Counted from the first letter of the stretch, positions 3,027 through 10,053 are shown. The stretch is 17,752 bases of DNA from a virus (IMGVR_UViG_3300032668_001907), one strand, 5' to 3'. Notes: a model not told the origin generated them from the letters alone. Translations and numbers: made by a program.

Positions 3027-3556
3027 CGATCTGTGTCAAAACGCGTGGGTCGACGTGCTGCACAACCGATGTCCTTGCACATGAGCGTCCCGTCGCAGGA
3101 GTGTTCGAGTCCCATGGCATGCCCAATTTCATGAGCGAATGTGATGACCATCTGGTCAGGCGTGTAGTCCTCATTCGCGTAGATGAACTGCCGGACAGTG
3201 ACGTCAGCGTGGCCCGTGAAATCGTTCCACACCGTCTTCCCCAGAGGTGAGAACTCCCCGCCTGGGTGGATGCAGATCTCCCTAGGCTCGTAGGTGCACT
3301 GCGTGATCCTCACCTCGTCGAACGGCTTGTCGTAAGGCAGTGCCTTCTCCCAATCAGAGATTGCCTCCTCTATCAGTGCGATGTCAGTGCTCGAGAATGC
3401 AGGGTCGATGTCTACGTTGTAGGAGCTCGGCGGCTTGTCGACTGGCTTCATCCCCTCGACGAGGCACACGGCGCCGCCGCAGCTCGCGAGCACCGCGACA
3501 GTCATGAGCGCCAGCGTCACCCTGCTCGGTGATTCACAACGTTCCCTTCTTTTCAT
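3005..3556 (-). CDS. Secreted lipoprotein zinc metalloprotease of the metzincin type (HEIGHAMGLEH motif with a Met-turn; snapalysin- or matrixin-like small protease)
   Basis: The N-terminus MKRRER-hydrophobic-LASC-GG has a bacterial lipobox (L-A-S-C). HExxHxxGxxH followed by ...GTLMC (a Met 7 residues after the third His) is the metzincin signature. Confidence 0.8.
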   Translation of the reverse strand: MKRRERCESPSRVTLALMTVAVLASCGGAVCLVEGMKPVDKPPSSYNVDIDPAFSSTDIALIEEAISDWEKALPYDKPFDEVRITQCTYEPREICIHPGGEFSPLGKTVWNDFTGHADVTVRQFIYANEDYTPDQMVITFAHEIGHAMGLEHSCDGTLMCKDIGCAARRPTRFDTDRWHYIRK

Positions 3557-4221
3557 TCACATGCACCCACGTCCAATGTATTGGATGGCCTAATACGTTG
3601 GTCTAAAGAGTTATCTTGGGCCAACGTGGGAGCCGTGGTGGCCAATTTAGAGGCCTTATGGGCTGCCCAATAAGCTTTGACACCTTCACTGATATTCTTA
3701 CGTGATTCTAGCGATCTTTTTTGTCCACGTAACGTTTTGCTGAGATTTGCTTTTTCTACGTCTGAAAGACGTCGCTTTGATGCAGCAATCGAAAGTCGTT
3801 GACGCGTTATTTCACTACGTTTTTCTCCCTTACATTTTCTTTGCGCATCAGCCATTCGTTTTCTTGTGAATTCAGAAGGAGGTTCGCGTCTCCGTCGTTT
3901 TTCGCTCATTTTGAGTTTAGATTCAGGACTAGCGTTTAATACGCCTTCGCCTCCATCAGTCAAATTCGATCCCCAGTGACCCTCAAGACCATGGTGAGTT
4001 TTCAACAGTGCAATCAATTCGACTTCACGGTCAAGTGCCCATCGTTCAACGAGCGTCTCAAAAACGATGATGCGTTTCTTGTGGCCGTGTTTTGCAACAA
4101 TATTCTTCCAAATCACGTTACGAGGTTTGACATTTTTCAGACGTCGCTTGTTGCCCTTTCCAACATAGAAAGGTCGATCATCACTTGTGATATCAATGTA
4201 AGTGTAATAACGTTTGAACAT
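3553..4221 (-). CDS. Free-standing GIY-YIG homing endonuclease with NUMOD3-type repeats (I-TevI/Seg-like)
   Basis: The N-terminus from the ATG at 4221 reads MFKRYYTYIDITSDDRPFYVGKG...R...E...N.TDGGEG, i.e. GIY...YVG plus the conserved R/E/N. The C-terminal half has repeated S-PE/-K--K-L-S-A--KR motifs. It is translationally coupled (TGATG overlap) to the upstream gene. GC is lower than the surroundings. Confidence 0.85.
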   Translation of the reverse strand: MFKRYYTYIDITSDDRPFYVGKGNKRRLKNVKPRNVIWKNIVAKHGHKKRIIVFETLVERWALDREVELIALLKTHHGLEGHWGSNLTDGGEGVLNASPESKLKMSEKRRRREPPSEFTRKRMADAQRKCKGEKRSEITRQRLSIAASKRRLSDVEKANLSKTLRGQKRSLESRKNISEGVKAYWAAHKASKLATTAPTLAQDNSLDQRIRPSNTLDVGACE

Positions 4222-4631
4222 CACGTTTCTTCCATTCCCTTCTCTGCCATGATCTCCTTGAGAAGGTTTCCCAACTCGACGTATTTTGAACCGAGAGTCA
4301 CGATGTCGACCTTGCTGAGTCGCTTCACGTCGTAGGAACATACGTACTTGGGACGCTTTGTGCCGAGACCAAAGAAGTCGAACACAGGTTGCAGTTGAAC
4401 GTATCCCTCCTTCTCGCGAAGTTGGACGCGCTTGCCGTTGAAGTCGCGATAGATACGTACACTCCTCCTGTACCTGCGACCTGCTACTACCTTGACGTAC
4501 TCTTCCTCGGGTTTGACAGGGACGGGCGCATGCTCACGCACGATCCTGTAGATCTCACCGCCCCAGCTCGCAGCTCTGACACAGACGAAGTCACCCTCAG
4601 CTAGGTTGTATTCAGCGAGCGTGCGTGTCAT
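4221..4631 (-). CDS. Hypothetical protein (136 aa)
   Basis: ATG ORF whose stop overlaps the HEG start. It lies in the same leftward operon. Confidence 0.5.
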   Translation of the reverse strand: MTRTLAEYNLAEGDFVCVRAASWGGEIYRIVREHAPVPVKPEEEYVKVVAGRRYRRSVRIYRDFNGKRVQLREKEGYVQLQPVFDFFGLGTKRPKYVCSYDVKRLSKVDIVTLGSKYVELGNLLKEIMAEKGMEET

Positions 4632-5265
4632 TCTCTTCCTCGATGATGTGTGACCATTTCTTCATGAGCTCAGTTCCCACCGCCTTTTCCATCAACAACT
4701 TGCTTTCTGCGCTGATCCCGACGGGCGTGGATCGCTTGCCAAATGCAGATCGTAGCCAAGATCGAAAAGATGACAGCCTCGATTGCGTGCGTGTGATCAA
4801 CCATCTGATGCCCTTCCATATCATCTTAACCCATGCAGGCCCGGAATTGCATCTCCTGTCGAGCCATGTTTCCATGCCCGGGTACTTGTAGTCAAGGTAG
4901 AAGATTCCTCCGACAGGTATCGTCATGGGTTGGATTGAAACGAGTTGTGGAGCACGTAGTAGTGGGAACGTACTCCTGACGAGAGGAAGCGCGAATTGCC
5001 CGAAGCCAGTGAAGTGCTTCGGTTCCTTACTCCACAACACGGTGATCTGCCTTACAACATTACTTTCGTACTCCACGGCAATGACGATGCCGAGGGAGCT
5101 GCGGTCGCCAGTGTGGGCAATCGTCCCCGCGTGGTACACCCAGTCACCGGGCGTGAGCGTGTTTCCTGCGTCCTTCGGATCGAAGTGACAGATGCAGGAT
5201 GGATGATCGTACCTGGTGAAAGGCGTTTCTACGTCAGGCCTCGTGTACGTCTTGAGCGAGCTCAC
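4612..5265 (-). CDS. Hypothetical protein (217 aa), member A of the small beta-barrel paralogue family. Motif: TPGDWV...GIVIAVEYESNVVRQITVLWS.
   Basis: A GTG start overlaps the upstream stop (GTGA). Its N-terminus MSSLKTYT matches paralogue D (SQLKTYT). It shares the family motif. Confidence 0.6.
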   Translation of the reverse strand: MSSLKTYTRPDVETPFTRYDHPSCICHFDPKDAGNTLTPGDWVYHAGTIAHTGDRSSLGIVIAVEYESNVVRQITVLWSKEPKHFTGFGQFALPLVRSTFPLLRAPQLVSIQPMTIPVGGIFYLDYKYPGMETWLDRRCNSGPAWVKMIWKGIRWLITRTQSRLSSFRSWLRSAFGKRSTPVGISAESKLLMEKAVGTELMKKWSHIIEEENDTHAR

Positions 5266-9253: not shown

Positions 9254-9307
9254 GTGTTTCATTTCCTTGTGGGTGAATTATTATACATGATAAGAGGATG
9301 TACAAGC
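9254..9307. promoter_or_regulatory. AT-rich divergent control region between MVP (minus) and the GIY-YIG remnant (plus). It contains the MVP SD (AAGGAA) and a TATAAT-like box on the minus strand.
   Basis: The minus strand reads ...CATGTATAATAATTCACCCACAAGGAAATGAAACACATGGCC. Low local GC. The -35 assignment is ambiguous. Confidence 0.35.
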
Positions 9308-9430
9308 ATGATATCATACATCATTTTGAACAATGTGAACATCAAAAAAACGTTGGAATTTCGTCTTAAACGCTTGAAGAGCGATGGAAACGACATTGCA
9401 ATCACGCTGCCGAGGGTTCAACGTGTATGA
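9308..9430 (+). pseudogene. N-terminal remnant of a GIY-YIG homing endonuclease (40 aa, MISYIILNNVNIKKTLEFRLKRLKSDGNDIAITLPRVQRV). The YIG segment is missing and a 7-A homopolymer sits at 9344..9350.
   Basis: YIILNN resembles the GIY strand and LEFRLKRLK resembles the conserved ..ERRLKQHK helix, but about 8 residues carrying YIG are absent at the poly-A tract. It ends in an ATGA overlap with the next ORF in another frame. Confidence 0.5.
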
Positions 9431-10053
9431 TACATTGGACAATGCGCAAATACGGTAATGATGCTTTCGCAATTACGCAGTTGAAGACGTATGATACGTG
9501 GGAGGAAGCCTGCGAAGATGAAAAGTTGCTCATTAAAGAGCATAAGACGTTCATACGTGACTATCCTGACAATGGATACAACATGACTGAAGGAGGCGAT
9601 GGATGCCCGGGTTATCGATTCACTTCTGAGCAAAAGGCACGACAATCAGAAATCATGCGTAAACTTCGTCCCATGCTCGGACGAAAACACACCGAAGAAA
9701 CGAAACGCGCGATGAGCAATGCTCACAAAGGACATGTATACAGCGAAGATGAGTGCAAGAAACGAGCTGAACGTGCGCGTCAACAAGGATATCGTAACAA
9801 AGGACATCGTCACACCCATGAAGCGCGAAAATGTATGAGTGAAAAGCACAAGGTCGCTGTCGTTCAACTGACACTCGACAATGAGTTCATCGCAACACAT
9901 GCGTCAGCAACAGACGCGGGAAAGACGACGGGAATCAAGCGCCAGTACATCTTCAAGTGCTGCCGTGATAATACGTTGTCAAATGGCGGATTTAAGTGGC
10001 GTTACCTCGACCTAGAAAGGTCGAAAGTTCAATACAAGCGCAAAGACGTTTAA
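9427..10053 (+). CDS. C-terminal portion of a GIY-YIG homing endonuclease: the catalytic-domain tail (RKYGNDAFAI...GYNMTEGGDG), NUMOD3-like repeats and a C-terminal HTH (GIKRQYIFKCCRDN...GGFKWRY). It is probably non-functional as a nuclease without the N-terminal motifs.
   Basis: It matches the second half of the I-TevI catalytic domain (NKHGNVFECSILEE...GYNIADATFGD) and the I-TevI-like C-terminal DNA-binding module. A partial direct repeat (about 9383..9409 against about 9451..9480) straddles the frame break. Confidence 0.7.
   Translation: MIHWTMRKYGNDAFAITQLKTYDTWEEACEDEKLLIKEHKTFIRDYPDNGYNMTEGGDGCPGYRFTSEQKARQSEIMRKLRPMLGRKHTEETKRAMSNAHKGHVYSEDECKKRAERARQQGYRNKGHRHTHEARKCMSEKHKVAVVQLTLDNEFIATHASATDAGKTTGIKRQYIFKCCRDNTLSNGGFKWRYLDLERSKVQYKRKDV

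Follow-up and report, generated by a model that had tools for sequence, protein, structure and literature searches.

The window analysed here, a stretch of 17,752 nt from the viral sequence IMGVR_UViG_3300032668_001907, carries three homing endonuclease genes (HEG1, HEG2 and HEG3), two of which flank a gene for a homolog of the major vault protein (MVP). All three are free-standing Seg-like GIY-YIG homing endonuclease genes (HEGs) of foreign composition, found sporadically in relatives, and they seem to be mobile on the evolutionary time scale. In a preliminary description of this sequence, the position of HEGs on both sides of MVP was taken to suggest that the MVP cassette could be, or could have been, mobilised between related phages by HEG-mediated gene conversion. 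This interpretation is only partly supported: the genes were largely described correctly, and mobilisation of MVP by the HEGs is not supported. In our opinion it is rather probable that the HEGs are independent selfish insertions, and that MVP and the small genes downstream of it are resident and vertically inherited, not cargo. The elements in question are the following.

3553..4221, minus strand: HEG1, a free-standing GIY-YIG homing endonuclease gene of the Seg-like kind, intact, encoding 222 aa, the C-terminal half being helical and NUMOD3-like
4221..6493, minus strand: six co-oriented small genes downstream of MVP, from gene calls (106, 104, 101, 101, 217 and 136 aa)
6578..9262, minus strand: the MVP homolog, 894 aa, with Pfam matches to MVP_shoulder, Vault_3 and Vault (PF11978, 5.1e-25; PF17795, 2.9e-8; PF01505, 1.4e-6)
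9308..10053, plus strand: HEG2, a pseudogene of a homing endonuclease with GIY-YIG, NUMOD3 and C-terminal helix-turn-helix (HTH)-like parts
15226..15297, minus strand: tRNA-Thr(UGU), predicted by ARAGORN (Rfam tRNA, 72.3 bits), directly beside the HEG3 start
15337..16008, plus strand: HEG3, an intact GIY-YIG and NUMOD3 homing endonuclease gene (Pfam GIY-YIG PF01541, 3.5e-7; NUMOD3, 2.1e-9)

The window belongs to a metagenomic contig of 36.3 kb (Logan SRR11286066_3460), and a megablast search of GenBank phages with the whole window gave no match. It is most likely a fragment of an uncultivated huge phage, because the MVP homologs reside on uncultured phage records of 462-735 kb and on large contigs: these records are the only GenBank phage matches of MVP (40% identity), and of its 2551 homologs in the protein database many are on contigs of 100-350 kb. 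The window was compared with eight related metagenomic loci (L003-L010), fetched via the closest MVP homologs (82% to 68% identity), synteny being established gene by gene in a tblastn table. The survey of MVP loci comprised ~86 loci, that is, these eight and 80 loci from IMG/VR; the latter came from an alignment-based scan, as a single-protein MVP scan of IMG/VR gave no match. In all relatives, the endonuclease genes considered are those of the GIY-YIG/NUMOD3 type, the only class screened.

HEG1 is tightly packed: its start shares 1 nt with the stop of the 136-aa gene, and at its other end the stop overlaps the start of a metalloprotease gene (ATGA). Pfam did not call a GIY-YIG domain in its product and reported NUMOD3 only below the threshold (E = 0.024), and a PDB sequence search provided no identification. 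The early assignment of this gene as an intact GIY-YIG HEG was nevertheless confirmed, as it matches phrog_314, "homing endonuclease" (2.5e-11), in the same profile region as HEG3; both HEG2 and HEG3 also belong to phrog_314. In the alignment of the HEG1 family (36 members), Y8, F18, Y19, G21, R27, E66, N86, G90 and G91 are invariant, and Y8, F18-Y19-x-G21, R27, E66 and N86 constitute the GIY-YIG catalytic set. A profile built from the N-terminal 95 residues of the family alone picks up HEG3 (3e-8) and HEG2 (1.3e-5), and members of the family carry PF07460 (NUMOD3). The AlphaFold2 model of HEG1 has a predicted local distance difference test score of 87.7, exceeding 90 over residues 1-90, with residues 99-195 modelled as helices, and the top nine PDB matches of this model in Foldseek are all UvrC GIY-YIG domains (probability 0.89-1.0). 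Thus the profile, the catalytic residues and the predicted fold together show HEG1 to be a Seg-like GIY-YIG enzyme, one so divergent that the Pfam GIY-YIG model misses it. Its placement at the distal end of the MVP operon has to be corrected, since four more co-oriented genes (2442..3556) come after it.

HEG2 was initially described as a decayed GIY-YIG HEG positioned divergently upstream of MVP, and we observed the same. In three-frame translations, the frame opening at 9308 ("MISYIILNNVNIKK") breaks at the A7 run 9344-9350 by the loss of one nucleotide; the other frame runs on as "NVGISS*TLEERWKRH...MIHWTMRKYG", with an in-frame TAA at 9367-9369. These lesions are not assembly errors, because the region is identical in two independent assemblies. 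When one A is added and the stop is read as X, the repaired protein (248 aa) matches Pfam GIY-YIG PF01541 at 1.2e-8 (35.5 bits, cutoff 22.6) and, weakly, I-TevI (1mk0); NUMOD3 is found by Pfam at 6.5e-6, and is also found in the repaired protein. The GIY-YIG motifs are recognisable, but since the frame is broken, HEG2 does not encode an active GIY-YIG endonuclease. Both lesions fall within the first 21 of the 248 codons and the last 208 codons are open; this residual ORF (9427..10053) has its own GAGG 10 nt upstream of an internal ATG. HEG2 fills nearly all of the 802-bp gap between a 67-aa gene and MVP. No intact close relative with identity above 38% was found for it in the protein database (the best matches have 28-38%), and it is absent upstream of MVP in all eight loci L003-L010.

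HEG3, described as an intact HEG next to the tRNA, clearly has both GIY-YIG and NUMOD3. It aligns to the I-TevI catalytic domain through the GIY, YIG, R, E and N positions. The gene is convergent with an ATPase gene, overlapping its end by 4 nt. In L003, an ortholog occupies the same junction between the tRNA position and the ATPase gene, with ~71-74% amino acid identity (depending on the alignment method) and the same ATG as at 15337; the ratio of nonsynonymous to synonymous substitution rates (dN/dS) is ~0.10, hence HEG3 is under purifying selection. The adjoining tRNA-Thr is a clean ~73-bp indel relative to L003, where no tRNA was found, and the intergenic flanks on both sides of it (15130-15336) are better conserved in L003 than the neighbouring coding DNA.

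The HEGs have several features in common. All three are intergenic, between called genes, and HEG2 and HEG3 are the plus-strand exceptions in a region where nearly all genes, from ~15100 down to 2442, are on the minus strand. Their GC content of 0.438 (HEG1), 0.453 (HEG2) and 0.470 (HEG3) is lower than the mean of the other genes in the window (0.541), so that the earlier remark on the low GC of the HEGs is borne out gene by gene; at third codon positions (GC3) the values are 0.359 for HEG1 and 0.446 for HEG3, the mean of non-HEG genes being 0.686. Among annotated phage proteins, those closest to HEG1 and HEG3 are named "Seg-like homing endonuclease" and have 28-36% identity. The Rfam scan yielded the tRNA only and no group I intron, and an intron-encoded origin of the HEGs was therefore rejected. 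The same contig carries a fourth GIY-YIG gene of the HEG1 family (L130, 3792..4448), directly after a Cpn60 chaperonin gene and ~4.9 kb to the left of window position 1. Thus, there are at least four endonuclease genes in 28.6 kb, separated by gaps of 8.5, 5.1 and 5.3 kb.

The distribution of HEG1 and HEG2 in related genomes is polymorphic, and this, together with the retention of HEG3 in L003, is typical of free-standing HEGs at various stages of the homing cycle. No endonuclease gene is seen at the HEG1 or the HEG2 junction in L003-L010. HEG1 is missing from its junction in L004, L005 and L007-L009, though the 217-aa and 136-aa genes recur in L004-L009. In L006, a member of the HEG1 family (30% identical) is situated elsewhere, further along the module, and in another MVP-bearing related phage a 49%-identical relative follows a 5'-3' exonuclease gene, far from MVP. 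The MVP part of the comparison came out differently, as MVP is at the same position in all eight loci, which were fetched via MVP; there it is preceded by 60-150 bp and then by a co-oriented small gene.

Several tests indicate that the bracketing of MVP has no special meaning. A GIY-YIG-type ORF was observed within 10 kb in ~9 of the ~86 MVP loci, at scattered positions and adjoining MVP in only 2-3 of them, and in ~77 of ~86 there was none. Loci anchored on a neighbouring gene with the Metallophos domain carry GIY-YIG ORFs at least as often as the MVP loci. The Metallophos gene is itself bracketed by GIY-YIG genes in L095 (2176-2886 and 3964-4635), and a GIY-YIG gene directly precedes it in L099-L101 (9093-9980). 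GIY-YIG elements cluster around several conserved genes of the region, and not around MVP alone. In the contig studied here the four HEGs are 5.1-8.5 kb apart, and therefore any gene in this stretch is bracketed; with one HEG every 5-8 kb, little can be concluded from the fact that a gene has endonuclease genes on both sides.

The MVP gene itself does not look like a recent arrival. Its GC3 (0.80) is among the highest in the window, that is, its composition is native and strongly biased, not foreign. In blastn alignments, MVP has 79.5% identity to L003 and 70-73% to the other loci, the similarity being confined to the MVP gene and stopping at its ends. A search for a high-identity island in MVP revealed no 150-nt window with more than 88% identity to any relative, comparison with each of three different relatives picks out the same conserved segments, and the 5' end of MVP, beside HEG2, has the lowest identity at third codon positions. 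No meaningful direct or inverted repeats were found around the cassette, and transposon-like boundaries were rejected for this reason. In relatives, the small genes that separate MVP from HEG1 are missing or little conserved, except that the tblastn synteny table shows the 217-aa and 136-aa genes again downstream of MVP.

The loci considered so far were selected by the presence of MVP. A search with the Metallophos gene, 6.6 kb from MVP, recovers relatives independently of it. In four of the Metallophos-anchored loci MVP is within the 10-kb flank, and in two more, whose contigs also occur in the MVP search, it is ~12 kb away. One lineage, IMGVR_UViG_3300028654_000384 and two near-identical contigs, lacks the MVP module. 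The extended and merged locus of this lineage (L127 and L100) corresponds to window positions ~2053-10803 and is collinear with them, seven markers being kept in order (the ATPase, 64%; a 210-aa gene, 55%; a 78-aa gene; an 86-aa gene; a 109-aa gene, 61%; Metallophos, 53%; and an eIF-1a-like gene, 60%). An MVP profile search of the merged locus found nothing at E<=10, and the 217-aa and 136-aa genes have no counterparts between the 86-aa and 109-aa markers. The place of the module is taken by small SH3-like paralogs and an M24 peptidase. A match of L100 2106-2351 to the genes upstream of MVP was rejected as a syntenic one, being a match to the SH3-like paralog family. The MVP-less contig is not among the matches listed in two motif scans, the second of them GC-biased, which is weak evidence for the absence of MVP from the whole 215,857-bp contig. 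Hence the MVP module is not universal, and the idea that MVP is always present in relatives is not strictly true. The simplest reading is that this lineage has probably lost the module by deletion, because nearly all relatives, the distant ones included, have MVP, and this lineage is no further from the window phage than MVP-bearing lineages are. The empty site carries no endonuclease gene, and in its vicinity there is only one, just upstream of Metallophos.

We suggest that the genome of this phage is densely colonised by free-standing Seg-like GIY-YIG endonuclease genes that inserted independently of one another, each as a selfish element in a junction between genes, with a conserved gene next to it. 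HEG1 follows the 136-aa gene, HEG2 adjoins the MVP promoter region on its upstream side, HEG3 separates tRNA-Thr from the ATPase gene, and the fourth comes after Cpn60. By analogy with the Seg and Mob biology of T4, in a mixed infection the enzyme would cut an endonuclease-free allele near the insertion point, and repair would copy the HEG together with some hundreds of bases of flank from the carrier genome. By their appearance, HEG1 and HEG3 are active, and HEG2 would have entered the degeneration phase of the homing cycle. The bracketing of MVP would then be a side effect of how densely HEGs occur and of their preference for junctions adjoining conserved genes, and homing would at most co-convert the adjacent MVP ends between near-identical phages.

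Several observations weigh against this reading. The number of synonymous substitutions per site (dS) in MVP relative to L003 is 0.83, about half of that in the flanking genes (1.65-2.5), which alone could mean a more recent shared ancestry of MVP. The value is, however, lower in MVP also in comparisons with L004 and L007 (the range for MVP is 0.83-1.5), and as it is low against every relative and GC3 is 0.80, it indicates codon bias and constraint and not a recent transfer specific to one pair. Pairwise identities of MVP and Metallophos do co-vary, with the closest pairs in agreement, which favours a resident MVP; the correlation (r = 0.54) is moderate, however, and the pairs are non-independent, so that the p-value is invalid. 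This co-variation is weak evidence. The existence of the collinear MVP-less relative means that the module is not immovable. Finally, an endonuclease-free variant of the same phage was sought in sibling contigs and none was found, L002, L131 and L132 being 99.86-100% identical; since all sibling contigs are at least 99.86% identical, current mobility of the HEGs is inferred from more distant relatives only.

The opposite possibility, that the MVP module is cargo, would require that the two flanking endonucleases cut HEG-free or MVP-free relatives on both sides, and that repair copies the 6.5-kb block. The preliminary description essentially arrived at the hypothesis of HEG-islands, published by Barth, Dunham & Seed 2023 (PMC10055350), in which the islands are >90% identical between otherwise dissimilar phages. 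As in such islands, a conserved gene with its neighbours, here MVP and the six small genes, is flanked by HEGs at both ends, one of them dead in our case. Also, blastn aligns no part of the window to L004-L010 except MVP, the dS of MVP is below that of the flanks, one collinear relative lacks the module, and a distant MVP locus, L076, likewise has I-TevI-like genes on both sides. However, no block of >90% identity is shared with otherwise dissimilar phages, the identity of 70-79% ending at the ends of the MVP gene, and the related loci have no cognate HEGs at the same junctions. Two of the three defining features of the island model are thus lacking. In addition, the poor conservation of the small genes between MVP and HEG1 is at variance with transfer of the block as a whole, the low dS against all relatives and the GC3 of MVP fit codon bias and constraint, HEG2 is dead, the empty site of the MVP-less relative has no HEG, and bracketing is expected from the HEG density. 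We consider this explanation improbable. A still less probable variant is that the interval from HEG1 to HEG2 is, or recently was, a composite homing unit with the vault module as its cargo, the MVP-less relative representing the sort of empty site that such a unit could be copied into; if true, a large structural-protein module would be a passenger of selfish endonucleases in huge phages.

Two other alternatives concern the HEGs and not MVP, and both appear unlikely to us. The HEG2 remnant could be domesticated, so that the 208-codon ORF, devoid of the catalytic N-terminus and retaining the NUMOD3 and HTH-like parts, is translated and regulates the adjacent MVP promoter. I-TevI, which represses its own promoter, provides a model for such a regulator. 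The confinement of the lesions to the start of the gene, the GAGG in front of the internal ATG, and the proximity of the ORF to the MVP upstream region are all in line with this. At the same time, two lesions are too few for statistics, there is no ortholog for a purifying-selection test, the GC content is still foreign, and an open remainder is equally expected of a recently inactivated gene; that the ORF still makes a DNA-binding protein next to the MVP promoter is speculative. It could also be supposed that the intact HEGs, especially HEG3, are no longer mobile and have become vertically inherited, domesticated nucleases or DNA-binding proteins, for example, cutting the genomes of competitors or processing DNA. 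HEG3 indeed is at the same junction in two phages, and has diverged (~71-74% amino acid identity, dN/dS ~0.10) similarly to the ATPase (~68-69% identical). Yet its composition is still foreign (GC3 0.446 vs 0.686), its family has a sporadic distribution among relatives, an element that keeps homing should be under purifying selection as well, and competitor exclusion is the homing mechanism itself. Separate selfish insertions next to a resident MVP thus remain our preferred explanation.

The free-standing GIY-YIG homing endonucleases of T4-like phages, SegA-SegG, were reviewed by Edgell, Gibb & Belfort 2010 (PMC2988022). Like the Seg enzymes, those of the window combine a GIY-YIG catalytic domain at the N-terminus with NUMOD3-type DNA-binding repeats, and their genes are free-standing, placed in intergenic regions by conserved genes, sporadic in relatives and lower in GC than the host genome. 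SegB lies in the T4 tRNA cluster (PMC2330249), and HEG3, similarly, adjoins a tRNA gene, itself an indel between relatives. Unlike the Seg enzymes, the HEGs of the window are only 28-36% identical to any annotated phage protein, with HEG1 beyond the Pfam GIY-YIG model, and their carrier is an uncultivated huge phage. They extend the Seg-like free-standing GIY-YIG endonucleases of phages by new, divergent members. A defunct endonuclease in a homing cycle is known from T4, where I-TevIII is mobilised in trans by mobE (PMC2790892). HEG2 resembles I-TevIII in being inactivated and still in place, ~5 kb from each of the intact HEG1 and HEG3, which could in principle co-convert it. For HEG2, trans-homing would be hypothetical; HEG1 is 5.1 kb away, a distance longer than typical co-conversion tracts. 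Two gut phage MVPs were described by Santos et al. 2023 (bioRxiv 10.1101/2023.11.10.566534), and the bracketed gene here is likewise an MVP homolog with shoulder and vault-repeat domains; the abstract of that study does not mention endonuclease genes, and, unlike in the abstract, 2551 homologs are recorded here, many of them on phage contigs of 100-500 kb.

Upstream of MVP, whose start is probably at 9253 (891 aa) rather than at 9262, there is a short divergent spacer:

9263..9307, no strand: 45-bp spacer between MVP and HEG2, with the MVP ribosome-binding site AAGGAA, a TATAAT-like element, a TTGTAC motif, and the HEG2 ribosome-binding site AAGAGGA

The promoter-like match in the spacer is on the minus strand (9304..9277). 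In relatives (L003-L028), the TTGTAC/TTGTAG motif is found again 50-90 nt ahead of the MVP start, and it is also seen upstream of HEG3 (15299-15336), with TACAAT ~20 nt further downstream; it may be a phage-specific promoter element.

Small paralogs at 4221-6493 and 12293-13284 have in common an SH3/Tudor-like motif, PGD.V......G.V......VLWS, which also occurs in L100 (1198-3384). This SH3-like family clusters around MVP in the window and is expanded in relatives, and its members could supply repeats for deletions or rearrangements. In the 217-aa protein (4612-5265, minus strand), residues 88-130 match the N-terminal positions 4-46 of the Pfam profile Gp23 (the T4 major capsid protein), and the same match was observed in the homologs downstream of MVP in L004, L006 and L008; this segment may be a capsid-targeting or propeptide-like signal. 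The gene whose start overlaps the HEG1 stop (3005-3556, minus strand) encodes a small zinc metalloprotease, reprolysin/matrixin-like, with HExxH and an N-terminal signal- or lipoprotein-like segment, and has no homolog in any related locus fetched. A Gly/Ser/Asn-rich ORF of 166 aa (634-1134, plus strand) has no family match and is as foreign-looking as the HEGs (GC 0.427, GC3 0.425). The sole mismatch between the window and the Logan contig L001 over 17,752 bases is at position 628 (T in the window, G in L001).

Thus, what would be three stages of the homing cycle are found side by side in one phage genome: an intact endonuclease gene (HEG1), one that is intact and retained under purifying selection (HEG3), and a degenerating one (HEG2). 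The inventory of selfish elements in huge phages gains Seg-like GIY-YIG enzymes that are divergent, to the point that Pfam missed one of them, and MVP is conserved and syntenic throughout this group of huge-phage contigs.

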